Assembly: GCF_000025685.1 (NCBI RefSeq)
Contig: NC_013964.1
Location: 240,001-272,000, forward strand
Reading direction: 5' to 3'
Length of the DNA: 32,000 bases
Source: Haloferax volcanii DS2
Lineage (GTDB): Archaea > Halobacteriota > Halobacteria > Halobacteriales > Haloferacaceae
Position 1 is the first letter of the stretch. Every line of letters begins with the position of its first letter. The notes beneath the pieces are model-generated. The model was not told the DNA's origin, ran no database searches, and saw nothing but the letters and a program-made list of their open reading frames with translations. The translations under genes were made by a program, and so were the position numbers. Positions 3,540-24,770 of this stretch are shown here, piece by piece.

Positions 3540-3560
3540 ACGTCGTGGTACAGTCACACA

Positions 3561-3574
3561 TGAATAATTGTTTT
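3561..3574 (-). promoter_or_regulatory. TATA-like box for the 2688-3539 TIM-barrel gene
   Basis: tgaataattgtttt (minus strand aaaacaattattca) is centred about 28 nt upstream of the ATG at 3539. Confidence 0.45.
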
Positions 3575-3634
3575 GGTACTGTCACTCATTCGGGCCGAAA
3601 AACGTGAAGCGAGCCGCCGAGGGAGCCCGTCGGT

Positions 3635-4597: not shown

Positions 4598-4642
4598 CGT
4601 CGGCCAGTCGCTGGGACGGGTGCTCGCGTTCGAGCGAGGCGG

Positions 4643-5518
4643 TCAGGTCCACCCATGGGCTTCGAGGTACTCCATCGCGGTTCGGGCCGTCTCCGCCGCA
4701 GTCTCCTGATAGGGGTACAGTTCGACCGTGACGTGGCCGTCGTAGCCGGTCGCCTCGACCGCGTCGAGGAAGCCGTCGATGTCCATCGCCCCCTCACCGA
4801 GTTGGGTGTGTTCGTGGGTGCGGTCCGCGGGGATGTCTTCGAGGTGATAATGTGGCGTGTGGGGTTCGAGCGTCTCCACCAGTTCGACCGGGTCCTCGCC
4901 GACCGAGTAGAAGTGTCCCGCGTCGAAGTTACAGCCGATTCGGGGCGAGTCGACCCGGTCGACGAGGTCGAGGAAGTCCTCGGGGGTCTCGATGAGCAGG
5001 TGCGGTTCGGGTTCGACCAGCACGTCGACGCCGAGTTTCTCCGCGGTGTCAGCGACCTCGCGGAGCCCTCGGACGAAGGCGTCGAGCGCGTCCGCCCGCG
5101 TCATGCGCTCCGGGACGGGGCCGCCCGGCGGGACCGAGATGCTGTCCGCGCCGAGCGCGGCCGCGGTGGCGAGCGCGTTCTGCGTGTGCTCGACCCGCGC
5201 CTGTCGGTCCTCGGCCGCGAGTTCGACGAACGAGGGGTGGTGAAACGCCTCGGTGTCGCGGTTGAACGTCGCCGCCCGACTCGCCGCGGAGGGCTCGATG
5301 GCGCTGAGCATGAACGCGTTACAGTTGCTGACTTCGATGCCGCAGTCGTCGAGAAGCGTCCGAACGCGTTCGAAATCGTCGCCGTCGGCCGTCCCCGGGA
5401 ACAGATGCGGGTCGTCGAGCAGGATTTCGACGCCGTCGTAGCCGGCGTCGGCGATTGCCTCGACCCCCTCGGTGAGAGTTCGCTGGCGGAACGCGTTCAT
5501 CGAGAAGCCGAACTCCAT
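4643..5518 (-). CDS. Sugar phosphate isomerase/epimerase, xylose-isomerase-like TIM barrel (second copy)
   Basis: MEFGFSMNAFRQRTLTEGVEAIADAGYDGVEILLDDPHLFP...NFDAGHF...HYHLEDI...VELYPY. Same fold family as 2688-3539 but clearly diverged. It starts 3 nt after the upstream TatD-type gene stop. Confidence 0.85.
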   Translation of the reverse strand: MEFGFSMNAFRQRTLTEGVEAIADAGYDGVEILLDDPHLFPGTADGDDFERVRTLLDDCGIEVSNCNAFMLSAIEPSAASRAATFNRDTEAFHHPSFVELAAEDRQARVEHTQNALATAAALGADSISVPPGGPVPERMTRADALDAFVRGLREVADTAEKLGVDVLVEPEPHLLIETPEDFLDLVDRVDSPRIGCNFDAGHFYSVGEDPVELVETLEPHTPHYHLEDIPADRTHEHTQLGEGAMDIDGFLDAVEATGYDGHVTVELYPYQETAAETARTAMEYLEAHGWT

Positions 5519-5521
5519 CGG

Positions 5522-6328
5522 TCACAGCTCGTAGTGGAAGTTCGGTGACTGGCCGAAGAACTCCCGGGGGTTGTCGCAGACGACCTTCCGGACCTCGTCT
5601 CGGTCCCAGCCCCGGTCGAGCATCTTGTCTCGGGCCTTCGGGACCGCGAGCGGGTCCGAGGGGTCCCAGTCGGCGGCGCTGTTGAGCAGCATCCTGTCGG
5701 TGCCGTACTCTTCGAGGATGTCGATGGTCGTCTCGGCGTCTATCTTTCCGGGGTAGAGGGTGAAGCCGAGCCAGCAGTCGGTTTGCAGCGAGATGTCGAC
5801 CGTGTTCTCGGTGTTGTGGTCGATGACGATTCGCTCCTCGGTCACGTCCTCGTCTTGAATCATCTCGACGAGTCGCTCGGTCCCCTCGGGTTTCTGGGTG
5901 TGCGGGGTGTGGATGATGACCGGCAGTTCGCGCTCCTCCGCCATCCTGAGTTGGCGTCTGAACGCGTACTCCTCGGCCTCGGTCCCCTGGTCGAGCCCGA
6001 TTTCACCGAGTCCGACGACGTGCTCGCGGTCGAGGTACTCGGGGAGGCCGTCCATCACGGCCTCGGCCATCTCGGGGTAGTTCGCCTCCTTCGGTTCGAG
6101 GCCGACCGTGACGTAGTGGTCGATGCCCGCCGCCCGCTCCGCGCGGTCGGTCTCGAACTCGATTATCTGCTCGAAGTAGTCGAAGAACGACGCCGCGTGC
6201 TGCTTGTCCGTCCCGCTCCAGAACGCCGGTTCGACGCAGCATTCCACGCCCGCGAGTCGGGCGCGCTCGTAGTCGCTCGTCGAGCGAGACACCATGTGCA
6301 TGTGCGGGTCGATAATTGGTATCGACAT
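5522..6328 (-). CDS. TatD-related metal-dependent hydrolase (amidohydrolase superfamily)
   Basis: N-terminal IIDPHMHM (HxH metal motif), GLGEIGLD and IIHTPH motifs, 268 aa. An AT-rich box at 6348-6364 is centred about 28 nt upstream of the ATG at 6328. Confidence 0.8.
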   Translation of the reverse strand: MSIPIIDPHMHMVSRSTSDYERARLAGVECCVEPAFWSGTDKQHAASFFDYFEQIIEFETDRAERAAGIDHYVTVGLEPKEANYPEMAEAVMDGLPEYLDREHVVGLGEIGLDQGTEAEEYAFRRQLRMAEERELPVIIHTPHTQKPEGTERLVEMIQDEDVTEERIVIDHNTENTVDISLQTDCWLGFTLYPGKIDAETTIDILEEYGTDRMLLNSAADWDPSDPLAVPKARDKMLDRGWDRDEVRKVVCDNPREFFGQSPNFHYEL

Positions 6329-6482
6329 GTGACCTACCTCTCTGATGGTAGTTAATCATTGTTTCGGTGGATTCGGTGACGGCCGGGGGGCGGGGGCGCC
6401 ACGGCCGCGCAACGCCCGGCCGACGCGGCCGCGAGCGACGGCGGAGACAGCTATTTACTCGTCCGCGCCGACGCCGTAGTCG
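6329..6482. promoter_or_regulatory. Divergent promoter region with back-to-back TATA-like boxes
   Basis: gtagttaatcattgttt (6348-6364) serves the minus-strand TatD operon. ctatttactc (6451-6460) serves the plus-strand zinc-ribbon ORF. Each is centred about 28 nt from its ATG. A further box, ggttatgtat (about 6742-6751), lies about 28 nt upstream of the ATG at 6774. Confidence 0.45.
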
Positions 6483-6692
6483 ATGCCGGAACACTGTCCG
6501 TTCTGCGGCGAGCCGATAGAATCGACCCGCGTCACGCCCGAGGACGGTCGCCCCTACGAGGAGTGGCGCTGCGCCGACTGCGACGAGACGTGGCGACACC
6601 CCGAGGAGACGGTTCTCGACCGGTCTCTCGATTTCAGCAAGCACGGCGACCAACTCGACAGGCGGGACGCCGACACCGACCTCGACTGGTGA
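6483..6692 (+). CDS. Small acidic zinc-ribbon protein (69 aa), two CxxC pairs
   Basis: MPEHCPFCGEPIESTRV...EEWRCADCDETWRHPEE, with C5-x2-C8 and C30-x2-C33. Acidic composition is typical of genuine halophile proteins. ATG start with a TATA-like box 28 nt upstream. No family name assignable by eye. Confidence 0.6.
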   Translation: MPEHCPFCGEPIESTRVTPEDGRPYEEWRCADCDETWRHPEETVLDRSLDFSKHGDQLDRRDADTDLDW

Positions 6693-6773
6693 ACGGTCGC
6701 CCGCCGGTACCGACGCGGAAACAATCATGATTGACGGACAAGGTTATGTATCGGCCACCGCAATCGTGAGTCG

Positions 6774-7970
6774 ATGACAGTCGGAGTGTGGATTATCGGA
6801 GCCAGAGGTAACGTCGCGAGCGTCTCGATGACCGGCGCGCGCGCAATCGCTCGCGGAGTCGCGGACACGACCGGGATGGTGACGGCCCGCGAGCCGGTGG
6901 CCGCGCTGGACCTCCCCGCCGTCGACGACCTCGTGTTCGGGGGCCACGACATCCGGTCCCAGCGAATCGAGGAGACCGCCGAGGAGATGGCGGGCCACGG
7001 CGGCGTCGTGGCACCAGACACCCTCGACGCGGTCCGCGAGGACCTCCGCGAAATCGACGAGCGCGTCGAACTCGGGACCGCCCGGCGGTGCGGCGAGGCG
7101 GTCGAAGGGATGTCCTCGGAGACGACGGGAGAGGACGTGTCGGTTGCCGACATCGTCGAGGAGATACGGGCCGACTACGCCGCCTTCGCGGACTCGCAGG
7201 GCGTCGACCGGTTGGTCGTCGTGAACGCCGCGTCGACCGAGCCGCCGATTCCGACGCCCGGCGACTACGACACGCTGGCGGCGTTCGAGACGGCGGTCGA
7301 GCGCGACGACCCGAACCTCCCCGCGAGCGCCCTGTACGCCTACGCGGCGCTCCTCGACGGCCACCCGTACGTGAACTTCACCCCCAGTACCGGCTCCTCA
7401 CTCGGCGGCCTCCGCGAACTCGCGGAGCGAAACGAGGTGCCGCACATGGGCCGCGACGGGAAGACCGGCGAGACGCTGATGAAGTCCGCGCTCGGGCCGA
7501 TGTTCGCGGGGCGGAACCTGCGCGTCCTCTCGTGGGAGGGCCACAACATCCTCGGCAACAGCGACGGACTCGTCCTCGAAGACGACGCGAACAAGGCGGG
7601 GAAGATAGAGAGCAAGGGGAGCCTGCTGGACGACATCCTCGGCTACGAGACCCACAACGCCGTCCGCATCGACTACACGCCGTCGCTCGGTGACTGGAAG
7701 ACCGCGTGGGACCACGTCCACTTCGAGGGCTTCCTCGGGACGGAGATGAAGATGCAGTTCACGTGGGAGGGGGCTGACTCGGCGCTCGCGGCCCCGCTCG
7801 TTCTCGACTTGGTTCGGCTGGCCGCCCTTGCCGACGAGCGCGGAGAGGGCGGGACGATGTCCCACCTCGCGTCCTTCTTCAAGTCGCCCGAGGGCGTCGA
7901 CCGCCACGAACTCTCCGAGCAGTTCCGCCTCCTCTACGACTACGCGGAGCGCCACGCGGAGGGAGCGTGA
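6774..7970 (+). CDS. myo-Inositol-1-phosphate synthase family enzyme (inositol-3-phosphate synthase-like)
   Basis: 398 aa. It aligns by eye along its whole length with archaeal MIPS as I recall it: VWIIGARGNVAS (NAD-binding N-terminus), ASALYAYAAL, PYVNFTPS, GRDGKTGETL(M)KS, NILGNSDG, FFKSP. Confidence 0.88.
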   Translation: MTVGVWIIGARGNVASVSMTGARAIARGVADTTGMVTAREPVAALDLPAVDDLVFGGHDIRSQRIEETAEEMAGHGGVVAPDTLDAVREDLREIDERVELGTARRCGEAVEGMSSETTGEDVSVADIVEEIRADYAAFADSQGVDRLVVVNAASTEPPIPTPGDYDTLAAFETAVERDDPNLPASALYAYAALLDGHPYVNFTPSTGSSLGGLRELAERNEVPHMGRDGKTGETLMKSALGPMFAGRNLRVLSWEGHNILGNSDGLVLEDDANKAGKIESKGSLLDDILGYETHNAVRIDYTPSLGDWKTAWDHVHFEGFLGTEMKMQFTWEGADSALAAPLVLDLVRLAALADERGEGGTMSHLASFFKSPEGVDRHELSEQFRLLYDYAERHAEGA

Positions 7971-9367
7971 CGACTCGCGACCCCTCGGCCGCTGGCGCGT
8001 CCGGTGCCGGGCGCGTCGTCGTCCTCGATATCGTCGGCCTCCAACAAACGCACCTCGACGAGGGGCTGGCACCGAACGTCGCCGACTTGCTGGCCGGCAA
8101 GCCGTCCGGCCCGCTCGAACCCTCGTTTCCGAGCGTCACGGTGCCCGCGCAGACGACGCTCTCGACCGGGCAGTCGCCCGCGGCCCACGGCGACGTGTCC
8201 AGCGGCGAGTTCGACCGCGAGCGACAGGTCGCCGAGTTCTGGGAGCGCGACCGAGGAGGCCGAACCCGGCTGTGGGAGGTCGCGAGCGACGAGGCGGGCC
8301 TCACCACGGGCGCGCTGTTCTTCCAGCACCTCATCGGCACGAGCGCCGACGTGGCCGTCACGCCGTCGCCCATCGAAGACGAGGACAACAATCTCATCGA
8401 GATGGACTGCTGGACGACCCCCGACGGCTTCTACGACGACCTCCGCGAGGAGTACGGCCACTTCCCGCTGCACAACTACTGGGGGCCGGTCGCCGACGAG
8501 CGGAGCAGCGAGTGGATTCTCGCGGCCGCGCGGGAGTCGATAGCGCGGTCCGACCCGGACCTCCTGTGGGTGTACGTGCCGTACCTCGACTACGACGCCC
8601 AGCGGCACGGCCCCGACTCGCCGGAACTCCGGGAGGCCGTCGGCGTCGTCGACGACCTCGTCGGGGAGTTCCTCGACCGGCTCGAAACGACGCCCCGCTG
8701 GGCCGAGACGGCGGTCGGCGTCGTCAACGAGTACGGCTTCAACGCGGTCGACACCCCGGTGTTTCCGAACCGGGCGCTCCGCGAGGCGGGCCTGCTCGCC
8801 GTGCGCAACGACGACGCGGGCGGCGAGAAAGTCGATATCGCCGGGTCGTCGGCGTTCGCCATGGTCGATCACCAAATCGCGCATGTCTACACCGACCGCC
8901 CGACGGCCGCCCGAAAGGTGCTCGAATCGCTCCCCGGCGTCGACGCGGTGCTCGAAGGGGAGGCCCGGGGCGACGCGGACCACCCGAACGCCGGCGACCT
9001 CGTCGTCGTCGCGGACGCGGACGCGTGGTTCCAGTACTACTGGTGGACCGACGACGCCGATGCGCCGTCGTACGCGACGGAGATAGACATCCACGCCAAG
9101 CCCGGCTTCGACCCGTGCGAACTGTTCCTCGGCGACGAGGGACTCGTGACGCTCGACCCGACGAAGGTGTCGGGGTCGCACGGCCGCATCGACCCAGACA
9201 CGCGCGGCTTCTACGGCTTCGGCGGGCCGGCGGCACCCGACGGCCCGTCCGACCGAATCGTCGATGCGCGGCGGTTCGCGCCGACGGTCGCGGACCTCCT
9301 CGGCATCGCAGAGGACGTGTCGCTCGCGTTCGAGCGCCCGTCGCTGTTCGCCGGGCCGCAAGTGTAG
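7967..9367 (+). CDS. Alkaline-phosphatase-superfamily nucleotide pyrophosphatase/phosphodiesterase (type I phosphodiesterase family)
   Basis: VVVLDIVGL...EPSFPSVTVPAQTTLSTGQSPAAHG is the metal and nucleophile-Thr motif region of NPP/AP enzymes. 466 aa with no signal peptide. The GTG start at 7967 overlaps the upstream TGA (GTGA), suggesting translational coupling to the MIPS-family gene. Confidence 0.8.
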   Translation: MTTRDPSAAGASGAGRVVVLDIVGLQQTHLDEGLAPNVADLLAGKPSGPLEPSFPSVTVPAQTTLSTGQSPAAHGDVSSGEFDRERQVAEFWERDRGGRTRLWEVASDEAGLTTGALFFQHLIGTSADVAVTPSPIEDEDNNLIEMDCWTTPDGFYDDLREEYGHFPLHNYWGPVADERSSEWILAAARESIARSDPDLLWVYVPYLDYDAQRHGPDSPELREAVGVVDDLVGEFLDRLETTPRWAETAVGVVNEYGFNAVDTPVFPNRALREAGLLAVRNDDAGGEKVDIAGSSAFAMVDHQIAHVYTDRPTAARKVLESLPGVDAVLEGEARGDADHPNAGDLVVVADADAWFQYYWWTDDADAPSYATEIDIHAKPGFDPCELFLGDEGLVTLDPTKVSGSHGRIDPDTRGFYGFGGPAAPDGPSDRIVDARRFAPTVADLLGIAEDVSLAFERPSLFAGPQV

Positions 9368-9487: not shown

Positions 9488-12400
9488 TCAGTTCCCGCCC
9501 GAACTCGCGATTTCGATGGTGCCGCGCATCCGTAGCTGGTGGGCGCGACAGACGTACTCCGCCATCGCGTCGGTGACGGTGAACGTGACGGTCTGTGACT
9601 CGCCCTGCGTCGAGAGGTACGACGTGGAGATGTCGTTGACGGTGGAGTCGTCGCCGTTGACGATTTCGAAGTTGTGGGGCGCGCCGTTGCGGTTCGTCCA
9701 CGTGAGCGTGTACTCGCCGCCGGCTTCGAGGGTGAGCGTCGGATTCGTCGCGTCCGCGATTCCGGACGGCGCGACGCCGGTCCAGCCCTCGTTGCTCTCG
9801 GCTTCGAGTTCGATGGTCGAGCCCGACGGGATGACATCGCTCCCGTCGTCGTCGCTGCCGCCGTCGTCGCCGCCGCCGCTCGTCGCCTCGACGTGCGCAG
9901 TGACGCGGTCGTAGACGAGCTCCAGCCCGTTGCCGGAGCCGCCGATGCGCGTCAGTTCGGTATCGTCGAACCAGACGGTGCCGGTGGCGTCTCCCCAGCC
10001 GCCGAACAGCAGGTTAAGCTGGAACTCGCCGGGCGACGCCCCGGTCGAGAACGTCGTTTCGAGCAGTTGCCAGCCCTCGACGGGCTCCGTGTAGTAGTCG
10101 GTGACAGAGCCCTGTCCGAGTGAGTGGACGTTGATGGTGACACCGTAGGAGCTTCCGATTTCCCCGGTTCCGTCCTCGGAGTTGCTGAAGTCGTCCGAGG
10201 TCCTGACCCACGCCCGGAAGCGGTACTCCGAGTTCGGTTCGAGGTCGTCGCGGTACTGGGTCCACGACGCATCCGCACCCTCCGTGGAGTCGACGCGGAC
10301 GCTGTACTCGCCCGTCCGCGAAACGTCCGAGGTGTAGGTGAACTCGGCCGTGCCGCCGTAGGTAGTCCCCTCCCAGTTCGCCGGGGTCTCGGGGTCCGAC
10401 GGGGAGTCGGTTCCCGCTCCCTCCTCGAACGACGCGTTCGGCAGGAGGTTGTTCCCGTCGGGGTCGGTCAGCGAGACGTTGTCGAACCACGCCGTCCCGG
10501 TGGCCGTGCCGTAGCCGCCGAACAGGCAGTTAATCTGGACCGTCGTGGTGTCCGCGCCCGTGGTGAACGTGGTACTCACCTCCGTCCAGTCGTTCGTCCC
10601 GGTCAGCGGCTCCGTCTCGAAGTCCGTGCTGTGGACGTTGAACAGCGCGCCGCGGGCAGAGTCGCTGGCCTGCACGTTCTCGGTCCGTATCCAGCCGCTG
10701 AGGGTGTACTCCGTCTCGGGCTGGACCGAGATGCCGTCGACGAGCCAGACCGCGTCCGCGCCCTCGGTGGACGAGATTTGGACGCTCTGACTGCCGTCTT
10801 GGCCCGCGTCCGCGTAGGTGTACTCGGCGGTGCCCGTGAACGTGTTCGTCGACCAGTCGGCGGGCATCGCCGGCTCGCTGCTGCCGGTGCTCTCTTCGAA
10901 GGAACCGTTCGAGAGCACGTCGGTGCCGTCCGGGTCGGTCAACGAGACGCCGTCGAACCACGCCGTCCCCGTCGCCTCGCCGTAGCCGCCGAACAGGCAG
11001 TTAATCTGGAGCTCTTCGAGGTCGCCGCTGTCGATGGTGGTGCTCAGTTCCGTCCAGTCGTTGGTGCCGGCCAGTCCGGACGGGATGGTGTCCCACTGCG
11101 TGCCCGAGTCCGTGTTCGCTATCTGCTCGACGTTGATGGTCGCGCCGAGCGGTCCCTCACCGATTGCGGTCCCGTCGACGAGTTCGAGGCCGTCGGTCCT
11201 GACGTACGCGGAGAGGGTGTACTCGGTGTTCGGGTCGACCGCGACGGTCGTGTTCCACGAGGCGTCCGCGCCCTCGGAGGACGACACCTGGACGCTCCGG
11301 TCGCCCTCGTAGCCCGTCTCGGCGTACGAGAACTCGGGCGACCCGGAGTAGTCCGTGTTCGACCAGCCGACGGGCATCGCGTCGGCGTCGCCGGTGTCGC
11401 CGCCGGCGGGCGTCTCGAACGAGGGGTTTTCGAGGAGGTTCGGCAGGTCGTCGCCGCCGTCGCCGCCGTCGCTCGTGTCCTCGTTTGCCTCGTACGCCGG
11501 GATGAAGCCGTCGGCGTGGGTCGCGCCGGCGAGCGACGCCGCGTCGACGAGAACCGTGTCCCGGTAGTTCGACTCGTCGCTAATCATCTGGTAGACCGCC
11601 TCGCCGGACGCGTCGTCGGCCGGCGTCTGCGCGAGCGCGACGAGCGCCCACATGGCGACTCGCCCGTCTTCGTCGTCGAGGAGGCCGTTGTCGAGAATCG
11701 CCCCCCGCGTCTCCGCCGTCGACGGGAGGACGCGGAGTGCGGTGAGCCTGACGCCCGCCGAGGAGTGGGTCAGCGCGCCGAGCGCGGCCTGAATCGCGGT
11801 CGCGTTTCCGGTGTCGGCGTCGAGCGCGCCGAGGCCGTGCATCGTCCGCAGCGCGTGAATCGCCGCCGGGTCGAGGCCGGTTTCGTCGAGCGTCTCCGTC
11901 GCGACGAGGTCGACGAGCGCCGAGAGCGCGCCGGTCTCGTTCCGTTCGACCAACAGCCGTTGGGCCGTCTGCCGCCAGAACATGTTCGTGTTCGACAGCG
12001 CCGCCACGAGTTCTGAGACGCTCGCGTCCGAGAGGTCGGTCGGCTCGTAGCCGTCGTCGTCGCCGTAGACGACGCGGAAGAGTCGGGCGGTCGCGTGGTC
12101 GCGCACCTCGGACATGTACGCGTTTCCGGGGCCGTTCTCGAAGCCGTCGGGTGTCGGGTTGTGCTGGTAGATGTAGTTGTACCAGTCGATGAACCAGAGC
12201 ATGCCGTCCGGGCCGACGGAGGAGTACGACGGTGCGAACCACGCATCTGTCGCGGCCGCGATGTTGTGGGCGTAATGGTTGGTGTAGCCCGCGCCGTCCT
12301 GCGAGAGGAAGAACGTCCCGAGCAGGTTACCCGTTCCGCCGCCGACGAAGCCGGTGTTGTTCCAGTACTTCTCGGGATATTCACGCGCCGTGTAGATGGT

Positions 12401-14698
12401 GTGACCGGTCGCCGCGGTGTAGCCACCGTGGAGGTCGACCTGCCGGACGCGGTCCGTGACCGGAAGGAATCGGTTCGTGTCGGACGCCGCGCCGAAGTCG
12501 TTCGGCCCGGTCCCCTCGATGAGGTCGTAGTACTGATGCGGGATGGCGAAGTAGTTGCTCGGTCGCCCGGAGGTCGCCGCCGAGCCGAAGGCGAGGCCCT
12601 CCTCGGTGAAGCCGAGGCCGGCCTGGTTCCCCGGGAGCGTGCCGACGATTTCGAAGTCCGTGACTGAGCCGTCTTCCAGCTTGAATCGGAAGACTGAGGA
12701 GCTGAAGTTTCGCTCCTCGCCGGCGACGGTGCCGCTGAAGCCGGAGTAGCCGACCTGTCCCCAAATCCAGTTGTCGATGCCGTGGGCCAGTTCGTTGGGG
12801 CCGGCGTGGGTGTCGCCGTTGCCGAACCCGGAGAACAGGACCGTCCGCTCGTCGGCCTCTCCGTCGCCGTCCGTGTCAGCGAGGTGGACCATCTTCCCGC
12901 TCTCGCCGGGGTCGTCGAGGTCCGCAACGACGACGCCGTCGTCGACGACCACCATGCTCGTCGGAATCGAGAGGCCGTCCGCGAAGACGGTGAACTCGTC
13001 GGCCTCGCCGTCGCCGTCGGTGTCCTCGCAGACGACGATTTTGTCGCGGTTCTGCCCGAGTTCGTTCGGGTAGTCGCGGGTGACAGACAGCCAGACGCGA
13101 CCCCGCGCGTCGAACTTCGCGTCGAGGATGTTCCCCCGCGCGTCGTCCGGCAGGTCGGCCTCGGTGACGAACGGTTCGAGGTCGAACCCCTCCGGCGTAA
13201 TCGTCCGCCGGACCGTCTCGCTGGGGTTCAGCGCCCGCTGCATCCTGTTCCAACTCGTCCCGCTGCCGACCTCCTCGGGGACCTCCGGCGTCAGGAGGCT
13301 CCCCTCCGGCGGCGGATAGTACGGGATGTCGGCGTCGATGAACTCCAAGTCGTTGAGGACCGTGGTGTCGTCGGCGATGGTATCTTCGTTCTTCGTGACC
13401 CAGCGAATCGCGTTCTCGATGAGCGCCTTGAAGCCGTCGGTCGCCCACGGCGCTCTGCCGTGACCCCACGCGGTGTAGAAGACGCGGCCGTCGCCCTGCG
13501 TGCGGGTCCACGACCACGGTTCGCCTTGGTCGCGTCCCTCGTCGTACTCGGGGATGCTGTCGCCCTCGGGGAACTGCGCGTAGGCGAGTACGTCGATATC
13601 GTCGTTGAGGTTCGTGTGGCGATACGTCTCGTCTTCGACCGTGATGGGGTCGAGGGTCGACAGGATGGGGTGGCTCGGCTGGGCGAAGTTCGTCGTCATC
13701 TCGCCGTAGTTGTGGGCGGCGAACTCGCCGCCGACGAGGTTCATGTAAGCGTCCGAGCCGGTGAAACAGGCCGAAGCGCTGTGAATCGGGATGAAGCCGC
13801 CGCCGTTCTCGACGAACTCGACGATGGACTGCTCCTGTTCCGCGGTCAGCGATTGACCGTAGTTCGCGCCGCGGTTGTCTATCATAACCCACGCGTCGTA
13901 GCGGTGGAGCACGTCGGGTTCGAGGTCTTCGAGTCGGTCGGTGTACTGGACCTCGATACCGCGGTTCAGCATGTACCCGGTGAGCTGGACCTGCCGTGCG
14001 GGCGCGTTGTGGCTGCCGCCCTGCGGGCCACCCATCATGAGGACGCTGATGGTGTCCTCGGCCGGCGGCGGCGTTATCTCGACGCTTCCCCGCATCTGCT
14101 CGGGGTGTTCTTCGGCGTAGTACATCGCCATCGACGACTCGGCGGTGAACGTGACCGTCTCCGAGCCGCCCGACGCCTGCATCGTGGAGAACGACTCCAT
14201 CACCTCGCCGGTCGGGTCCGCGAGCACGAACGTGATGTCCTCGTCCATGGCGTTCGAGAGCTCGATTTCGTACTCCTCGCCCTCGTGCACGACGAGCGTC
14301 GGATTGGCCGTGTCCGCCATCTCGTCTGGCTCGGTCGCGACCCACGAAAACGAGTCCGCCGCGGTCTCGATTTCCGTCCCGTTTCGCCAGCTGTTGATGC
14401 CCGTCAACAGGGAGTTGGTCGTCAGGTCGCCCTCGCGCCAGTCGGATATCGCGTCCGCGAGACCCGACCCCTCGATGACGGACTCCTCGTTCGTGTACGC
14501 CGCGAGGACGTCGCCCTCCGTCGCCACGAGGCGAATCGTGTCGGTGGCGGTGAGCTGTTGCGCCTGCGCGACGCCGCTGGCCCCGAGGAAGTTCGCCGCC
14601 CCCGCGCCGCTTACCTTCATGAAGTCGCGTCTGTTGATGTTCAGTCGGTCGCCGTCGTCGTCCGGGTTCGATTCCCGTGTCGTGTCGTCGTGTGTCAT
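9488..14698 (-). CDS. Giant Tat-exported multidomain oxidoreductase-like protein (1736 aa): degenerate cupredoxin, ThuA, dehydrogenase-like propeller, HEAT, 3x CBM-like, type-1 Cu cupredoxin
   Basis: Tat signal NRRDFMKVSGAGAANFLGASGVAQA (aa 22-46). ThuA-like region, aa ~216-436 (ISVLMMGG...FIPIHSA...RVFYTAWGHG). GSDH/membrane-bound-dehydrogenase-like region, aa ~495-880 (FDARGRVWLSV, two DTDGDGEADE motifs). HEAT-like helical repeats, aa ~890-1060. Three CBM4_9-like modules, aa 1085-1584. C-terminal cupredoxin, aa ~1622-1731, with H1675, C1717, H1720, M1724. ATG start and TGA stop checked. Confidence 0.9.
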   Translation of the reverse strand: MTHDDTTRESNPDDDGDRLNINRRDFMKVSGAGAANFLGASGVAQAQQLTATDTIRLVATEGDVLAAYTNEESVIEGSGLADAISDWREGDLTTNSLLTGINSWRNGTEIETAADSFSWVATEPDEMADTANPTLVVHEGEEYEIELSNAMDEDITFVLADPTGEVMESFSTMQASGGSETVTFTAESSMAMYYAEEHPEQMRGSVEITPPPAEDTISVLMMGGPQGGSHNAPARQVQLTGYMLNRGIEVQYTDRLEDLEPDVLHRYDAWVMIDNRGANYGQSLTAEQEQSIVEFVENGGGFIPIHSASACFTGSDAYMNLVGGEFAAHNYGEMTTNFAQPSHPILSTLDPITVEDETYRHTNLNDDIDVLAYAQFPEGDSIPEYDEGRDQGEPWSWTRTQGDGRVFYTAWGHGRAPWATDGFKALIENAIRWVTKNEDTIADDTTVLNDLEFIDADIPYYPPPEGSLLTPEVPEEVGSGTSWNRMQRALNPSETVRRTITPEGFDLEPFVTEADLPDDARGNILDAKFDARGRVWLSVTRDYPNELGQNRDKIVVCEDTDGDGEADEFTVFADGLSIPTSMVVVDDGVVVADLDDPGESGKMVHLADTDGDGEADERTVLFSGFGNGDTHAGPNELAHGIDNWIWGQVGYSGFSGTVAGEERNFSSSVFRFKLEDGSVTDFEIVGTLPGNQAGLGFTEEGLAFGSAATSGRPSNYFAIPHQYYDLIEGTGPNDFGAASDTNRFLPVTDRVRQVDLHGGYTAATGHTIYTAREYPEKYWNNTGFVGGGTGNLLGTFFLSQDGAGYTNHYAHNIAAATDAWFAPSYSSVGPDGMLWFIDWYNYIYQHNPTPDGFENGPGNAYMSEVRDHATARLFRVVYGDDDGYEPTDLSDASVSELVAALSNTNMFWRQTAQRLLVERNETGALSALVDLVATETLDETGLDPAAIHALRTMHGLGALDADTGNATAIQAALGALTHSSAGVRLTALRVLPSTAETRGAILDNGLLDDEDGRVAMWALVALAQTPADDASGEAVYQMISDESNYRDTVLVDAASLAGATHADGFIPAYEANEDTSDGGDGGDDLPNLLENPSFETPAGGDTGDADAMPVGWSNTDYSGSPEFSYAETGYEGDRSVQVSSSEGADASWNTTVAVDPNTEYTLSAYVRTDGLELVDGTAIGEGPLGATINVEQIANTDSGTQWDTIPSGLAGTNDWTELSTTIDSGDLEELQINCLFGGYGEATGTAWFDGVSLTDPDGTDVLSNGSFEESTGSSEPAMPADWSTNTFTGTAEYTYADAGQDGSQSVQISSTEGADAVWLVDGISVQPETEYTLSGWIRTENVQASDSARGALFNVHSTDFETEPLTGTNDWTEVSTTFTTGADTTTVQINCLFGGYGTATGTAWFDNVSLTDPDGNNLLPNASFEEGAGTDSPSDPETPANWEGTTYGGTAEFTYTSDVSRTGEYSVRVDSTEGADASWTQYRDDLEPNSEYRFRAWVRTSDDFSNSEDGTGEIGSSYGVTINVHSLGQGSVTDYYTEPVEGWQLLETTFSTGASPGEFQLNLLFGGWGDATGTVWFDDTELTRIGGSGNGLELVYDRVTAHVEATSGGGDDGGSDDDGSDVIPSGSTIELEAESNEGWTGVAPSGIADATNPTLTLEAGGEYTLTWTNRNGAPHNFEIVNGDDSTVNDISTSYLSTQGESQTVTFTVTDAMAEYVCRAHQLRMRGTIEIASSGGN
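9947..11446 (-). repeat. Three tandem CBM-like modules (~155-170 aa each) within the giant gene
   Basis: Shared pattern: N(L/V)L.N.SFE....P..W........(E/Y)(F/Y)(S/T)Y......G..S(V).(V/I).S.EGADA.W......(V).P(N/E)(T/S)EY...(A/G)(Y/W)(V/I)RT...Q(I/L)N(C/L)LFGG(Y/W)G.ATGT.WFD. An identical 31-mer, ccgtagccgccgaacaggcagttaatctgga, occurs at 10509-10539 and 10980-11010 (offset 471 nt, 157 codons). Confidence 0.9.
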
Positions 14699-15148: not shown

Positions 15149-16360
15149 ATGAGCGTCGTCATCGTCGGCACGCTCGACACCAAAGGCGAGGAAATCGGGT
15201 TCGCCCGCGACGTGCTCGAAGAACAGGGGGTCGAAGTCCACCTCGTCGACGTGGGCGTGCTGGGCGAGCCGGAAATCGAACCGGACACCGACGCCGCGGC
15301 CGTCGCCGAGGCGGGCGGGAGCACCCTCGAAACGCTTCGGGAGGCCGGCGACCGCGGCAAGGCCATCGAAATCATGGGCGACGGTGCCGCCGTCGTCGTG
15401 TCCCGACTCCACAGCGAGGGCCGACTCGACGGCATCCTCGGGCTGGGCGGCGGGGGGAACACGTCGGTCGCGACGGCCGCGATGCGCGCGCTGCCGATGG
15501 GCGTTCCCAAACTGATGCTGTCGACGATGGCGTCGGGCGACACGGAGCCGTACATCGGCTACCACGACATCGCCATGATGTACTCCGTCGCGGACATCGA
15601 GGGCCTCAATCAGCTCTCGCGGACCGTCATCTCCAACGCGGCGCTCGCGATGGTCGGCATGGTGTCGAACGAACCGGACGTGGAGACCGAGGAGAAGCCC
15701 ACCATCGGCATCACGATGTTCGGCGTCACCACGCCGTGCGTCCAGAGGGCGCGCGACTGGCTCGAAGCGCGCGGCTACGAGACCATCGTCTTCCACGCGA
15801 CCGGGACCGGCGGCCGGGCGATGGAGTCACTCATCGAGGAGGGCGTCATCGACGGCGTGCTCGACGTCACGACGACCGAGTGGGCCGACGAACTGGTCGG
15901 CGGCGTCCTCGCGGCGGGGCCCGGCCGACTCGACGCCGCGGCCGAACGCGGCATCCCGCAGGTCGTCTCGACCGGCGCGCTCGACATGGTCAACTTCGGG
16001 CCGAAAGACTCCATCTCAGACGAGTTCGACGGTCGGCAGTTCCACGTCCACAATCCGCAAGTGACGCTGATGCGGACGACGCCCGAGGAGAACGCCGAAC
16101 TCGGCCGCATCATCGCGGAGAAACTCAACGCCGCGACCGGGCCGACCACGCTCGCGCTCCCGCTCGGCGGCGTCTCGATGCTCGACGCGGAGGGCGAGGC
16201 GTTCTACGACCCCGAGGCCGACGACGCGCTGTTCGACGCGCTCCGCGAACACCTCGACGACGACGTCGAACTCATCCAATCGCCGGCGAACATCAACGAC
16301 GACGAGTTCGCGCTCACCCTCGCGGAAGCTATCGACCGCCGGATGCGGGCGGCGGCGTGA
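15149..16360 (+). CDS. UPF0261 / Tm-1-like ATP-binding domain protein
   Basis: MSVVIVGTLDTKGEEIGFARDVLEEQGVEVHLVDVGVLG...GILGLGGGGNTSVATAAMRALPMGVPKLMLSTMASGD is the family signature as I recall it (N-terminal half of tomato Tm-1). The track ORF 12782-16360 is a read-through of antisense sequence. The in-frame ATG at 15149 starts the recognisable protein (403 aa). Confidence 0.85.
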   Translation: MSVVIVGTLDTKGEEIGFARDVLEEQGVEVHLVDVGVLGEPEIEPDTDAAAVAEAGGSTLETLREAGDRGKAIEIMGDGAAVVVSRLHSEGRLDGILGLGGGGNTSVATAAMRALPMGVPKLMLSTMASGDTEPYIGYHDIAMMYSVADIEGLNQLSRTVISNAALAMVGMVSNEPDVETEEKPTIGITMFGVTTPCVQRARDWLEARGYETIVFHATGTGGRAMESLIEEGVIDGVLDVTTTEWADELVGGVLAAGPGRLDAAAERGIPQVVSTGALDMVNFGPKDSISDEFDGRQFHVHNPQVTLMRTTPEENAELGRIIAEKLNAATGPTTLALPLGGVSMLDAEGEAFYDPEADDALFDALREHLDDDVELIQSPANINDDEFALTLAEAIDRRMRAAA

Positions 16361-16540
16361 GACGACCGACATCGACGTGAGGCCGCCTCCGACGACCCAA
16401 TAGCTCCACCGAGACGGCCGCGTGTCGCCCCGCGAGCAGCGACGCTCGAAACACCGACCGGCGGAATTTCCCGCTCGCAGTCGGTCGTTCGACCTGTTTT
16501 CTACCTGTATAATCACAAAGTTTAACTATATCATGACACC

Positions 16541-17998
16541 ATGTCACTACCAGCGTTCCGAAGAAACATGACTGATCAACCAGCGCTAACTGACGAATCC
16601 AGGCGACGCTATCTGAAAGCAATCGGGACGGCCGGACTCACCGCCGGTCTCGCGGGCTGTTCCGGCGGGGGCGGCGGTAACGGCGGCGGCGGTGACGGCG
16701 GCGGAGATTCTGACGGCGAGAACAACGCCGGGGGCGGCGGGGGTGACGACTCCTCCGGCGGCGGCGAAGACTACGAGGCAATCGGGAACTTCCCGCCCGA
16801 GGGGAACTCCGTGAGCATCGGTTTCAACGGGCCGACCTCCGGCGCGTTGGGTCCCGACGGCCAAGACCAGGAGAAGGGCTTCGACCTCGCGGTGAAGCAC
16901 CTGAACGAGGGCGGCGGCCTCGTCGACTACTGGGACCGACTGAGCGGCGACGGCATCATGGGCTACCAGGTCGAGCCGACGAAGGCCGACACCGCCGGGA
17001 GCGCCGACACGGCACAGGACAACATCGAGCGGATGATTCAGCGGGACAACATCCAGTTCTGGACGGGCGGCATGTCCAGTACGGTGACGATGGCGATGCA
17101 GAACGTCGCCCAGCGAGAGAAAGTTCCGTTCATGGGTGGGAACTCAACGTCCGCCGGCATCTCCGGGGAGAACTGCTCGCGATACTACTTCCACCCGACG
17201 TTCCACGCGGAGATTATCGGGATGGCGATGGGCGAGGCCGCGCCCTCGGTCCTCGGTGAGGACCGCTCGCTGTTCCACATCTACATGGACTACTCCTACG
17301 GGCAGTCGAACCGCGACGCCGCCCGCAAGTACCTCACCGAGCAGGGGCCGTGGGAGGACGCCGGCGGTGCCGCCATCGCGGAGGGCGAGACCGACCACAG
17401 CTTCCAGATTCAGGCGCTCGAAGACTCCGGTGCCGACACGCTGTACTTCTCCAGCTTCGGCAACTTCGCCGCCAGCGGCCTCGCGCAACTGCGAGACGCC
17501 GGCCTGACCGACGACATCGACGTCATCATCCCGCACGTCAGCGCGTTCACCCTCGACCCGCTCGGCGCGGACGCCGAGGGCGTCCTCGGCATGGAGCCGT
17601 GGAACCCGAACGCCGACAACGAGGCGAGCCAAGCGTTCGTCGAGTCCTACCAGGCGGAGTACGACGAGACGCCGAATCAGAGTTCGCTGCACACCTACGA
17701 GTCGATGATGGTGTACGCCGCCGCCGTCGAGGAGGCCGGCACGTTCCACCCGCCGACCGTGGTCCGAACGCTCGAAGACTTCGAGTGGAGCCTCGCGTGG
17801 GGCGACTCCGCGTTCCGGACGTGCGACCACCAGGTCGAACGCCCGTGGTACATGGTGCAGGGCGTCGGCGACGACCGCGCCGAGGAACTCGGCATCCGGA
17901 CCGAAATCGTCGAGACGACCGACCCGCTCGTCTACGAGTGCAGCGAGTTCCCGGCGTCCAACTGCGCCATGGGCGACAACGAGTACGGAGACGAGTGA
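16541..17998 (+). CDS. livJ: ABC transporter substrate-binding lipoprotein, Leu/Ile/Val-binding (type 1 periplasmic binding protein) family, Tat signal plus lipobox
   Basis: RRRYLKAIGTAGLTAGLAGC gives a twin-arginine motif plus lipobox Cys, followed by a Gly/Asp linker and then a PBP1-like body. It is the first gene of a livHMGF-type operon. An alternative start at M10 (16568) is possible. The substrate is unknown; the symbol is family-level only. Confidence 0.8.
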   Translation: MSLPAFRRNMTDQPALTDESRRRYLKAIGTAGLTAGLAGCSGGGGGNGGGGDGGGDSDGENNAGGGGGDDSSGGGEDYEAIGNFPPEGNSVSIGFNGPTSGALGPDGQDQEKGFDLAVKHLNEGGGLVDYWDRLSGDGIMGYQVEPTKADTAGSADTAQDNIERMIQRDNIQFWTGGMSSTVTMAMQNVAQREKVPFMGGNSTSAGISGENCSRYYFHPTFHAEIIGMAMGEAAPSVLGEDRSLFHIYMDYSYGQSNRDAARKYLTEQGPWEDAGGAAIAEGETDHSFQIQALEDSGADTLYFSSFGNFAASGLAQLRDAGLTDDIDVIIPHVSAFTLDPLGADAEGVLGMEPWNPNADNEASQAFVESYQAEYDETPNQSSLHTYESMMVYAAAVEEAGTFHPPTVVRTLEDFEWSLAWGDSAFRTCDHQVERPWYMVQGVGDDRAEELGIRTEIVETTDPLVYECSEFPASNCAMGDNEYGDE

Positions 17999-18280
17999 CA
18001 GCCTGACAGCGCCTCGATACGAATACAACGTACCAACTCCATTTTGGGCAGTCGAGGCTCCCTCCGCGGTCAGTTCACCCGCGTTCGACTGCTCGAACGC
18101 CGCTTTTTCTCGGTCGCACGGACCTCGCGTTGACGCCCGGAGACGACCCGCGCCGCACCCGGAGAGCGGGCCGCTGCCGTGTCAAAAGTCAGCGAAACGC
18201 AAGATTAACATACTGAAGAATTCATGGATAATCGTGCACACCATGAACTGCTTACTCACAGCTGTACCGAGGTGGCTGCG

Positions 18281-19222
18281 ATGAACGTCGACGGCGTCGT
18301 CGGATTCCTCTTCATCGCGCTGAGCGTCGCGTCGCTGTATCTGCTCGTCGCGGTCGGACTGTCTATCGTGTTCGGGTCGCTCAAGTACGTGAACATGGCC
18401 CACGGCGTCCTCTACCTGAGCGGCGCGTACATCGGCCTACTCATCGCGTCGAGCGAACAGTACGGCGGGCTGTTGAGCGACTTCGGGCAGGTCGGCCTCG
18501 ACTGGGGGTTCGTCCCCGCGCTCGTGTTGACGCCGGTGGTCATCTTCGTCGTCGGCGTCGCGATGGAGCGCTGGATTGCGAAACCGTTCTACGAACGAGA
18601 ACTCCTCGACCAACTGCTCGTCACGTTCGGCATCCTCATCGCCGCCCAAGAGCTGGTCGCCATCCTCTTCGGCCGAACGGGGACCATCTACCCGCGCCCG
18701 GAGTGGCTCACGGGCGCGATATCCCTTCCCGTCATCGGAACGCCGCCGGGGATGAGCGCGGCTTCGACGATACGCGTCCTCGTCGTCGCGCTCACGCTGT
18801 TGCTCGTCGCCGGTATCTTCGCGTTCTTCAAGTACACCGATTACGGCCTCGCCGTCCGGGCGGGGACCGAAGACTCCGAGATGACGCAGATGCTCGGCAT
18901 CCGTATCGGGCGGCCGTTCCTCCTGATATTCGCCGTCGGAGCCGCGTACGCCGGGCTCGCGGGCGTTCTCGGCGGGTCGCTTTTCAACGTGACCTCCGAA
19001 ATCGGCATGGAGATAATCATCCCGTCGCTGGTCATCGTCATCATGGGCGGCGTCGGCAGTTTGCGCGGGACCGTCGTCGGCGCGCTCCTCGCCGGGCTCA
19101 CCTTCGCGGTGGCGACGGAACTCGAACCGAGCATGACGCAGGCCAGCATCTACCTGCTCGCCATCGTGGTGCTGACGATTAGGCCGAGCGGTATCTTCCC
19201 CTCGGCGGAGATCGGACAATGA
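18281..19222 (+). CDS. livH: Branched-chain-amino-acid-type ABC transporter permease (LivH family)
   Basis: Polytopic membrane protein; MNVDGVVGFLFIALSVASLYLLVAVGLSIVFG is a typical LivH N-terminus. I prefer the ATG at 18281, which has GAGGTG (18269-18274) about 6 nt upstream, over the track start at 18224. Confidence 0.85.
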   Translation: MNVDGVVGFLFIALSVASLYLLVAVGLSIVFGSLKYVNMAHGVLYLSGAYIGLLIASSEQYGGLLSDFGQVGLDWGFVPALVLTPVVIFVVGVAMERWIAKPFYERELLDQLLVTFGILIAAQELVAILFGRTGTIYPRPEWLTGAISLPVIGTPPGMSAASTIRVLVVALTLLLVAGIFAFFKYTDYGLAVRAGTEDSEMTQMLGIRIGRPFLLIFAVGAAYAGLAGVLGGSLFNVTSEIGMEIIIPSLVIVIMGGVGSLRGTVVGALLAGLTFAVATELEPSMTQASIYLLAIVVLTIRPSGIFPSAEIGQ

Positions 19223-20373
19223 GCACGGACAACATCCACAAGACCGTAGCCGAAGCATCGTCGTTGATTAGCTGGGACACCTGGGACCGAATCAAACACA
19301 CCGAGTCGTTCGTCCTCCTGTCGTCGGTGCTTTTCGTCCTCCTGTTCTCGTACGCATTCGGCCGCGCGCCGGTCGTCTCGGACGTCTTCCAGGGCTATCA
19401 CGGGCTGGCGATTACCATCCTCATCTGGTCGATATTCGCGCTCGGATTCAACCTCCTTTTGGGACAGACCGGCCTCCTCTCGTTCGGCCACGCCATGTTC
19501 TTCGGGACCGCGAGCTACGCCGCGGCGCTGTTTGCGATTCACGTGTACAACGACCCGCTGGCGGTCATCGTCGTCGGGACGCTGGCCGCGGTCGCCCTCG
19601 GGGCGGTCGCGGCGCTGATTCTCCTGCGCCTCCACACGGTGTACTTCTCCATCGTGGCGCTCGCCATCGGGCAGTTCCTCTACTTCCTCGCCCGCGAGCC
19701 GCTCGTGGAAATCACGAAGGGGATAAACGGCCTCGAAGTGCCGCGGTCGGACGTTCTCGGGGTCTTCGAGCTGGAACACCAGTACGGCGGCCTCCTCGGG
19801 GAACTCGTCGTGAACAACCTCTATCTCTTCGTCGGCGTCTTCTTCGTCGCCGTCGTCGCCTCCATCACGCGCATCCGCAAGTCGCCCTACGGGCTCATCT
19901 TCAAGGCGATTCGCGAGAACGAGACGCGGACGGCGTTCGTCGGTCTCGACGTCTGGCGCTACAAGTTCGCGGCGTTTCTCCTCTCTGCGGCCATCGTCGG
20001 CCTCGCCGGCGGACTGATGGCCGTCAACACCCAGTTCGCGGGCGTCGAGCGCCTCTACTGGTCCGTCAGCGGCGACGTGGTCGTCATGACCGTCCTCGGC
20101 GGCCTCGGGACGCTCGCCGGCCCGGTCATCGGGACGTTCGTGTTCTTCTACTTCAAGGGCATCGTCAACGGCTTCCCGACGCTCGGCAACTACTGGCTGC
20201 TCCTGCTGTCGCTTTCCTTTACCACGGTCGTGTGGGTCTACCGCGACGGCATCTGGGGGATGATTACCGCGCTCACCGGCGCGCTCCGCGACCCCCGAGA
20301 GCTGGTCGCCGCGATCACGGCCCGAGTCACGGGCGGCGACTCGACCGGCGACGCCCCGGGAGGTGAGGACTGA
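19219..20373 (+). CDS. livM: Branched-chain-amino-acid-type ABC transporter permease (LivM family)
   Basis: Polytopic membrane protein with LGQTGLLSFGHAMFFG (LivM signature). ATGA overlap with the livH stop. Confidence 0.85.
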   Translation: MSTDNIHKTVAEASSLISWDTWDRIKHTESFVLLSSVLFVLLFSYAFGRAPVVSDVFQGYHGLAITILIWSIFALGFNLLLGQTGLLSFGHAMFFGTASYAAALFAIHVYNDPLAVIVVGTLAAVALGAVAALILLRLHTVYFSIVALAIGQFLYFLAREPLVEITKGINGLEVPRSDVLGVFELEHQYGGLLGELVVNNLYLFVGVFFVAVVASITRIRKSPYGLIFKAIRENETRTAFVGLDVWRYKFAAFLLSAAIVGLAGGLMAVNTQFAGVERLYWSVSGDVVVMTVLGGLGTLAGPVIGTFVFFYFKGIVNGFPTLGNYWLLLLSLSFTTVVWVYRDGIWGMITALTGALRDPRELVAAITARVTGGDSTGDAPGGED

Positions 20374-22037: not shown

Positions 22038-22060
22038 CGTGACACTCGAACACACGGGAC

Positions 22061-24217: not shown

Positions 24218-24337
24218 CCGGGTTGACAGGCCATCGCGTGCGACTTTAATATTTCGGAAGAATCGACCGGCAGCCGAATGTCCGGCGAGCGACCCGGCCG
24301 CGACGAAGTTCGGTACGAGGGCGCTCGACCGCGCGAA

Positions 24338-24748: not shown

Positions 24749-24770
24749 GACGTGCTGAGTCAAACAGTAT

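Follow-up and report, generated by a model that had tools for sequence, protein, structure and literature searches.

The window analysed here is a stretch of 32,000 nucleotides of Haloferax volcanii DS2 (NC_013964.1, positions 240,001 to 272,000), and this report deals with one of its genes, HVO_B0215, an open reading frame (ORF) on the minus strand (9488..14698, ATG start) encoding a product of 1736 amino acids (aa). The product is exactly identical in sequence to ADE01485.1, that is, HVO_B0215 or UniProt D4GPL6 of H. volcanii DS2 (pHV3), while the gene is 99.3% identical at the DNA level to its counterpart on the H. lucentense plasmid pSVX82-1. The GC content at third codon positions (GC3) is 0.90, as in the genuine genes of the window (window GC 68%). 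The encoded protein joins a ThuA domain, a beta-propeller, HEAT-like repeats and three carbohydrate-binding modules (CBMs) to a C-terminal cupredoxin. On the basis of sequence comparisons and structural models we favour, with modest confidence, the view that it is an extracytoplasmic, glycan-binding oxidoreductase, exported by the twin-arginine translocation (Tat) route and equipped with a tethered one-electron copper relay.

HVO_B0215 is already present in the databases, under misleading names. UniProt, like an older GenBank entry, lists D4GPL6 as 'secreted glycosyl hydrolase' and RefSeq names the H. lucentense copy 'PVC-type heme-binding CxxCH protein'. The latter name is, judging from predicted domain content, wrong for all 20 haloarchaeal and the 31 azurin-type proteins examined. 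Members of its 90% cluster go by several names ('PVC-type heme-binding CxxCH protein', 'secreted glycosyl hydrolase', 'ThuA domain-containing protein' and even 'tRNA(Glu)-specific nuclease WapA'), and the copper domain figures in no name of this list. A literature search found no published analysis of the copper domain of HVO_B0215.

Domain architecture of HVO_B0215

The initial annotation, made by a model from the letters of the stretch, had described a Tat-exported fusion of ThuA, dehydrogenase-like propeller, HEAT repeats, three CBMs and a cupredoxin. This architecture is borne out by Pfam and NCBIfam scans (Table 1), with a Tat motif near the threshold and a weak HEAT_2 match; all the elements listed were found, while a degenerate N-terminal cupredoxin had been overlooked. 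The five Cys residues (311, 557, 1234, 1391 and 1717), the lack of any CxxCH motif in the 1736 residues and the two DTDGDGEADE motifs (559-568 and 608-617, both inside the propeller) are exactly as it had claimed. Moreover, in the Pfam and NCBIfam scans HVO_B0215 gave no match to PF00034, PF13442 or the haem-domain NCBIfam models, nor to any recognised glycoside hydrolase (GH) catalytic domain.

Table 1. Coordinates of the domains of HVO_B0215, of neighbouring genes in the window and of secreted fusions near orthologues
Feature	Residues	Position	Strand	Remarks
Tat-type leader	1-46	14561..14698	minus	NRRDFMK, hydrophobic stretch, AQA/QQ
Degenerate N-terminal cupredoxin	~100-212	14063..14401	minus	reciprocal phmmer matches with C-terminal cupredoxin
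ThuA	219-434	13397..14044	minus	PF06283, 3e-37
DUF7133/TIGR02604 beta-propeller	492-878	12065..13225	minus	PF23500 6e-87 and TIGR02604
HEAT-like alpha-helical repeats	~880-1075	11474..12061	minus	HEAT_2 weak; family profile
CBM_4_9-like module 1	~1085-1235	10994..11446	minus	PF02018
CBM_4_9-like module 2	~1236-1395	10514..10993	minus	PF02018; weak match to GH10-enzyme carbohydrate-binding module 4mgq
CBM_4_9-like module 3	~1396-1590	9929..10513	minus	PF02018
C-terminal cupredoxin	1618-1736	9491..9847	minus	PF00127, ligands H1675/C1717/H1720/M1724
Tat-signal multicopper oxidase, N-terminus		2-481, running off window start	minus	annotated 'multicopper oxidase' in H. lucentense
Xylose-isomerase-like TIM barrel		2691-3581	minus	
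UbiA prenyltransferase		3638-4642	minus	
Xylose-isomerase-like TIM barrel		4646-5521	minus	
TatD-like hydrolase		5525-6355	minus	
Inositol-phosphate-synthase-like gene		6735-7967	plus	replaces EboD sugar-phosphate cyclase
PF01663 phosphodiesterase		~7967-9364	plus	
UPF0261 (Tm-1-like)		~15149-16360	plus	
Liv-type ABC transporter		16526-21868	plus	
PQQ-repeat beta-propeller protein		22043-23317	plus	
PEP-hydrolase-like gene		23387-24337	minus	
Cupin		24341-24769	minus	
Giant secreted fusion, locus L003		16605-22226	minus	cupredoxin and PF07995 GSDH
Giant secreted fusion, locus L006		14171-18058		cupredoxin and PF07995 GSDH
Giant secreted fusions, locus L004		16589-20518 and 22774-end		cupredoxin and PF07995 GSDH

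The leader scores 18.6 bits with TAT_signal, slightly under the cutoff of 22.7, the NRRDFMK motif, the hydrophobic stretch and AQA all being recognisable; neither a lipobox Cys at the leader nor a PGF-CTERM at the C-terminus is present. The ThuA domain reaches 129.3 bits against a cutoff of 33.4 and covers model positions 2-209 of 209, and the family profile of this region matches the ThuA-like PDB chains 4e5v, 1t0b and 4jqs. The propeller is assigned by PF23500 (DUF7133; 292.8 bits, cutoff 27) and by TIGR02604 (132.6 bits, cutoff 122.2); both the ThuA and the TIGR02604-type domains that the annotation had proposed stand above curated cutoffs. The HEAT-like region lies under the HEAT_2 cutoff (18.1 versus 27.7 bits); it aligns in all homologues, many of which contain PF13646, and the family profile matches alpha-Rep/HEAT proteins at 5e-16.

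The propeller contains the motifs D-T-H631 and Q-H846-N-P-T-P, the former invariant in 63 family members, and about 25 of its positions, His, Arg and Asp among them, are invariant across bacteria and archaea. An AlphaFold 2 (AF2) model of residues 485-885, obtained from 63 family sequences, has a predicted local distance difference test score (pLDDT) of 91.9. Its top Foldseek matches are 1qbi, 1cq1, 2ism, 3das, 2g8s and 3a9g (E 2e-11 to 1e-7, TM ~0.5), which are the soluble glucose dehydrogenase (sGDH) dependent on pyrroloquinoline quinone (PQQ) and aldose sugar dehydrogenases of Thermus, Streptomyces, E. coli and Pyrobaculum. Further down the list, at rank 23 and below some lyases and lactonases, comes the fungal AA12 pyranose dehydrogenase. 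The model thus depicts a six-bladed propeller that is SGDH-like in fold, and it agrees with the GSDH-like dehydrogenase region recognised in the initial annotation.

Between the HEAT-like region and the copper domain, PF02018 (CBM_4_9) matches three stretches (75.7 bits, cutoff 25.9, 6e-21), which are 41-52% identical to one another in pairs; orthologues carry from 1 to 4 such repeats. A metagenomic Haloferax-like protein (P0002, 1579 aa, 93% identical) lacks exactly one of the CBM repeats encoded at 9929-11446 of the window, which suggests a recent loss by unequal recombination among them.

The C-terminal cupredoxin matches Copper-bind (PF00127) at residues 1664-1730 with 40.7 bits against a cutoff of 21.2 (3e-10). 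The type-1 copper ligands lie at the positions first proposed for them; they are invariant in the 18 haloarchaeal sequences aligned and conserved in 20 of 20 haloarchaeal proteins. The set being complete, copper binding is predicted. The AF2 model of this domain has a pLDDT of 94.9 and its Foldseek matches are cupredoxins, the best being the cupredoxin that is tethered to the nitrite reductase (three-domain type) of Hyphomicrobium denitrificans, followed by auracyanin, rusticyanin, plastocyanin and amicyanin. The domain is of a plastocyanin/amicyanin-like subtype, unlike the azurin-type domains of bacteria.

The peptide VCRAHQLRMRGTIEIASSGG at its end (window 9491-9550, residues ~1708-1736) looks like the transcription activator-like (TAL) effector repeat LCQAHGLTPQQVVAIASNGG, a trap for automated annotation. 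TAL effector matches (Hax3 and AvrBs3 chains, phmmer E~1e-6) were rejected as chance, being summed sub-threshold matches of this peptide to the TAL repeat.

The origin of the C-terminal domain was traced by an exhaustive search with its 119 aa over 1.8 billion cluster representatives (E<=1e-3). This returned 581 related representatives, of which every named one that was checked is haloarchaeal, the names being those of 'blue (type 1) copper' proteins. Among the best 150 relatives, 50 are halocyanin-like proteins of <=260 aa, mostly with Tat motifs, and many have lipoboxes; tandem arrays of two or three copies occur in about 35, and about 30 are long fusions. Ten of these fusions were scanned, and 7 contain a bona fide GSDH domain (PF07995). 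These cupredoxin-GSDH fusions often add ThuA, 3-keto-disaccharide hydrolase, malectin or NPCBM modules, and several of the long fusions have a cupredoxin on either side of the enzyme, as bookends. The domain of HVO_B0215 is hence assigned to the haloarchaeal pool of small blue copper proteins, which is in keeping with its earlier description as halocyanin-like, and copper as the carrier fits what has been reported for haloarchaea (PMC8305020).

The N-terminal cupredoxin is a paralogue of the C-terminal one (34% identity, E 4e-17). Since I155 and A195 replace the His and Cys ligands (the remaining positions being H198 and M202), it is predicted to be unable to form a type-1 copper site. In the orthologues of Haladaptatus and Halomicrobium it retains His, Cys and His together with an axial Gln, while in Halocatena and other orthologues it has decayed in differing ways. 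The intact copies indicate that the ancestral haloarchaeal protein probably had one cupredoxin at each end.

The copper domain could also be read as a point of electron entry, the protein then being a reductase or an oxygen-using oxidase that acts on an extracellular substrate and is fed by the respiratory chain or another donor. We regard this as highly unlikely. It is true that the three-domain copper nitrite reductase, to which the domain is structurally closest, has its catalytic centre fed by the tethered cupredoxin or cytochrome, and that in some orthologues both cupredoxins are intact, with Gln as the axial ligand at the N-terminal site and Met at the C-terminal one, suggesting a two-potential relay. 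However, the characterised enzymes among the top-ranked fold matches of the propeller (sGDH, the aldose sugar dehydrogenase Asd and AA12 pyranose dehydrogenase) are all oxidising dehydrogenases, ThuA is tied to sugar oxidation and a site for a reducible substrate is not evident.

A further alternative, which we find scarcely credible, is that HVO_B0215 is a non-catalytic, glycan-binding surface or adhesion protein, whose propeller, ThuA and cupredoxin became inactive scaffolds after horizontal transfer. The large, multi-module, secreted character of the protein, the variable CBM copy number and the decay already seen in the N-terminal cupredoxin would suit such a role, whereas the invariance of the C-terminal copper ligands over six genera, the constancy of the propeller positions from bacteria to archaea and the retention and duplication of paralogues all speak for a working enzyme.

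Haem and copper modules in the family

Redox modules were surveyed in the 120 database proteins closest to HVO_B0215. Of these, 19 come from haloarchaea (Haloferax, Salinigranum, Haladaptatus, Halocatena, Halomicrobium, Natrialbaceae and metagenomic sequences) and 101 from bacteria; the matches to a profile of the DUF7133 alignment were all fragments of <700 aa and did not serve to widen the survey. The same type of cupredoxin ends all 19 haloarchaeal relatives. As regards the bacterial ones, 58 end in a haem c module with one or two CxxCH motifs and 31 in an azurin-type cupredoxin, the full H/C/H/M set being present in 30 of these, while 12 have no redox module. A one-electron redox module therefore occupies the same C-terminal position in 89 of 101. 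The bacterial copper domain, of about 120 aa, has the pattern MQHN...CTFPGHWxxMxG; phmmer found no match between it and the haloarchaeal cupredoxin, and profile similarity is only marginal (E 0.015 or weaker).

When the ThuA-DUF7133-HEAT core is placed in a neighbour-joining tree with bootstrap support, the haloarchaeal proteins form a single clade (100% bootstrap) nested among bacteria and the main azurin clade stands apart from it (98%). The sister group of the haloarchaeal clade (80%) consists of bacterial proteins with no redox module. The best-scoring bacterial matches (P0020 and P0021) have the order HEAT-CBM-cytochrome c, with a CBM detectably homologous to those of the archaea. The cleanest single case of a recent module swap is a pair of sisters (100% bootstrap) that differ only in module type: P0047 (966 aa) carries a haem-binding cytochrome c and P0033 (1044 aa, Balneolaceae) an azurin-type cupredoxin.

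From the separate clades and the differing cupredoxin subtype, the haloarchaeal copper module appears to have been acquired independently of the bacterial ones. For the same reasons, together with the marginal similarity, inheritance of the archaeal cupredoxin from the bacterial copper-type clade was rejected. Exchange of the redox module is thus recurrent across the family, and HVO_B0215 is best described as one lineage-specific case of the exchange of a tethered one-electron carrier and not as a unique replacement of haem by copper. Peculiar to the haloarchaeal lineage are a cupredoxin of another subtype, a further N-terminal cupredoxin that is decaying, and the array of CBMs.

These data modify the initial annotation, which had contrasted the copper domain of HVO_B0215 with a haem c in its bacterial relatives. 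The contrast applies to the 58 haem proteins and fails for the remainder. That close bacterial homologues might routinely carry cupredoxins had been named there as a finding that would refute it, and the number that do so, nearly all with complete ligands, goes against the proposed swap. Nor is its direction, from cytochrome c to copper, settled by the tree: the sister clade is devoid of redox modules, yet P0020 and P0021 carry CBM and cytochrome c.

Concerning the choice of metal, the one-electron carrier of haloarchaea is halocyanin and not cytochrome c (PMC8305020), and in a survey of archaeal c-type cytochromes, proteins for cytochrome c maturation were reported not to be encoded in Haloferax spp. 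(PMC4429474). Presumably, a CxxCH domain brought in from outside could not be matured in Haloferax, while a cupredoxin from the local pool could. The lineage probably uses a cupredoxin of its own pool for this reason, that is, the inability to mature c-type cytochromes and the reliance on blue copper carriers. Whatever the substrate may be, the occurrence of haem c, azurin-type and plastocyanin-type domains at one position provides strong comparative evidence for electron transfer by the family. In addition, HVO_B0215 illustrates cleanly how an enzyme core that is shared horizontally is refitted with an electron carrier compatible with the host.

Genomic neighbourhood

The UPF0261 gene is divergent from HVO_B0215, and the block that runs from it to the cupin gene is syntenic with the orthologue in Salinigranum and Halomicrobium; Halocatena and Haladaptatus have a sugar-type (Peripla_BP_4) transporter in place of the Liv-type one. 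On the other side, the genes at 2691-9364 are, by their predicted products, an ebo-like set, the composition of the ebo gene set having been compared with the published one (PMC5133447). In Salinigranum and Halocatena, too, the orthologue is flanked by this set. That HVO_B0215 and the ebo-like genes make up a functional operon was considered and rejected: these genes run convergently to it or lie on the opposite strand, and the relation is one of conserved synteny only. Taken together, the neighbourhood recurs largely in Salinigranum, Halomicrobium and Halocatena and partly in Haladaptatus.

Past the ebo-like set lie an Ig-like secreted protein and then the start of a Tat-signal multicopper oxidase. 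By its position and the H. volcanii gene numbering, the latter is probably the laccase LccA. Halocatena likewise has a multicopper oxidase near the orthologue (L006 19323-21071), at a distance of 5 kb and just upstream of the ebo-like genes. To make the multicopper oxidase the electron acceptor of the tethered cupredoxin would be pure speculation.

In several genera the orthologue is accompanied by further giant secreted fusions. Besides the cupredoxin and the GSDH domain these contain ThuA, a 3-keto-disaccharide hydrolase or a TIM barrel of the AP_endonuc_2 type, together with malectin, PKD or NPCBM modules. The one adjoining the Halocatena orthologue has the order Cu-bind-ThuA-GSDH-NPCBM-Malectin, and that of Haladaptatus 3-keto-disaccharide hydrolase-GSDH-Malectin-Cu-bind. 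In Halomicrobium the fusion measures 1873 aa and is bracketed by two cupredoxins (Tat-cupredoxin-TIM barrel-ThuA-GSDH-Malectin-PKD-cupredoxin). In Salinigranum, a second ThuA-DUF7133-CBM-cupredoxin gene (1730 aa, L002 15696-20888) lies in tandem immediately downstream of the orthologue. That an SGDH-fold propeller, a module of the 3-keto-sugar pathway, a glycan-binding module and a cupredoxin, all predicted, are found combined time and again makes the strongest contextual case for carbohydrate oxidation.

Elsewhere in the window, the segment 26672-28120 (~1.4 kb) has a lower GC content (0.58-0.60) and no ORF with the codon bias usual in the window; its H. lucentense counterpart is unannotated as well.

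Proposed function and comparison with known systems

If HVO_B0215 is a copper-linked oxidoreductase, the three CBMs would tether it to a polysaccharide or glycoconjugate, of which the propeller would oxidise a sugar hydroxyl, with His631 as the general base, as in soluble glucose dehydrogenase, and with PQQ or another compound as the possible cofactor. The two electrons would leave singly through the tethered copper centre towards a soluble or membrane acceptor, the candidates being halocyanin, a terminal oxidase and, possibly, the multicopper oxidase encoded nearby. The electron-transfer module is interchangeable within the family, as haem c or as an azurin-type or plastocyanin-type cupredoxin. 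ThuA might play a partner role such as it has in ThuAB, which makes 3-keto-disaccharides (PMC8121099), and an oxidative (3-keto) route to the cleavage of glycosides is conceivable.

Several observations weigh against this scheme. Lac161_ORF7 (AGW45552), a TIGR02604-HEAT-cytochrome c protein of which HVO_B0215 was named as a homologue, is the sole biochemically tested member of the family, and the activity reported for it is the hydrolysis of lactose (Km 1.8 mM) and not that of a dehydrogenase (PMC5342196); the earlier statement that no family member has a defined substrate is, on this account, not quite right. As to the propeller, its fold class also takes in Ca-dependent lactonases and lyases, ranked below the top dehydrogenases, and HVO_B0215 did not match PF07995 (GSDH) in the Pfam scan. 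DUF7133 family profiles, when compared with PDB chains, retrieved no sGDH, Asd or other solved dehydrogenase, so the link to sGDH rests on fold; the WD40 and teneurin repeat matches that the same profiles gave were judged spurious. Between DUF7133 and the GSDH domains of haloarchaea, hhalign gives a weak match (probability 16.6%), D-T-H631 falling opposite the conserved GSDH His. Haloarchaea are not known to make PQQ. Furthermore, no ThuB-type gene (PF01408, Gfo/Idh/MocA) is present in the window or in five orthologous loci, and 12 of the bacterial relatives do without a redox module.

Because of the lactose hydrolysis by Lac161_ORF7, a plain hydrolase or lyase is kept as the main rival: HVO_B0215 would be a beta-propeller glycoside hydrolase or lyase with bound Ca2+, the cupredoxin being an accessory of regulatory, structural or redox-sensing nature. 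We think it rather unlikely. In its favour, planctomycete genome papers treat TIGR02604 proteins as putative beta-propeller glycosidases (PMC7397252), the fold matches of the propeller include PON1 and virginiamycin B lyase besides the Ca-dependent lactonases, there are two conserved acidic loops of the DxDxDG type and three CBMs, the 'secreted glycosyl hydrolase' annotation says as much, and 12 bacterial relatives have no redox module. An intact C-terminal redox module is nevertheless found in about 88% of the bacterial and in all 20 haloarchaeal proteins, and three unrelated module types swapped at one position are hard to account for without electron transfer. Moreover, dehydrogenases are the best fold matches, known GH catalytic domains were not detected in the scans, and a sequence of oxidation and elimination could mimic hydrolysis. 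Such a route of oxidation followed by cleavage would reconcile the lactose hydrolysis of Lac161_ORF7 with the oxidoreductase activity that we favour for HVO_B0215.

A broader proposal, distinctly unlikely as it now stands, extends this oxidoreductase function to a conserved, extracytoplasmic, 'copper-wired' oxidative breakdown of glycans in haloarchaea. Secreted dehydrogenases of SGDH fold (DUF7133/GSDH), fused to ThuA, 3-keto-disaccharide-hydrolase or xylose-isomerase-like modules and often bracketed by cupredoxins, would oxidise and split glycosides outside the cell and pass electrons via tethered type-1 copper to the neighbouring secreted multicopper oxidase or to halocyanin and a terminal oxidase. 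If true, the huge TIGR02604 family would gain a redox-glycosidase function and the laccase a physiological role. DUF7133/TIGR02604 proteins are abundant, 20 having been counted in a single planctomycete genome according to one genome paper. HVO_B0215 places a member of this essentially uncharacterised family in a genetically tractable archaeon, with a redox centre that could be followed by eye and by electron paramagnetic resonance.

Among known systems, the nearest to HVO_B0215 are the TIGR02604/PF23500 proteins of Planctomycetota, Verrucomicrobiota and Bacteroidota ('PVC-type heme-binding CxxCH' or 'putative membrane-bound dehydrogenases'), which share the ThuA-DUF7133-HEAT core with 33-44% identity and likewise carry a redox module at the C-terminus, some with a CBM_4_9 between it and the HEAT region. 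Unlike the haem members, HVO_B0215 has a plastocyanin/amicyanin-like cupredoxin for cytochrome c, a degenerate N-terminal cupredoxin and three CBMs. The bacterial ThuA-DUF7133-HEAT-azurin-type fusions (Catalinimonas alkaloidigena P0070, Chryseolinea P0073 and the Balneolaceae protein P0033) have the same core and a type-1 copper domain with full ligands at the C-terminus, but their cupredoxin is of another subtype and they fall in separate clades of the core tree.

The six-bladed propeller fold of the HVO_B0215 model is that of PQQ-dependent sGDH (1cq1), Asd (2g8s) and AA12 pyranose dehydrogenase (6jt5). The last of these, built as cytochrome b-AA12-CBM1, is an extracellular enzyme with a tethered electron-transfer domain and a CBM; its carrier is haem b, whereas that of HVO_B0215 is copper. 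Halocyanin and the small blue copper proteins of haloarchaea belong to the same sequence family as the C-terminal domain; halocyanin is, however, a free or lipid-anchored carrier, while the cupredoxin of HVO_B0215 is a covalent domain of a 1736-aa protein with no lipobox. With ThuAB of Sinorhizobium and Agrobacterium, HVO_B0215 has ThuA in common, but it has no ThuB, its ThuA is fused to the propeller and the protein is, by its leader, exported.

Finally, the three-domain copper nitrite reductase of H. denitrificans (2dv6) has the tethered cupredoxin that the C-terminal domain resembles most closely in predicted structure, and the tethered cytochrome c of the R. pickettii nitrite reductase (3ziy) is matched by sequence by the cytochrome c variants of the family. 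The catalytic core of these reductases is unrelated to HVO_B0215, and the position of the domain and the direction of electron flow may differ; what the nitrite reductases and the DUF7133 family share is the evolutionary logic of alternative tethered one-electron partners.

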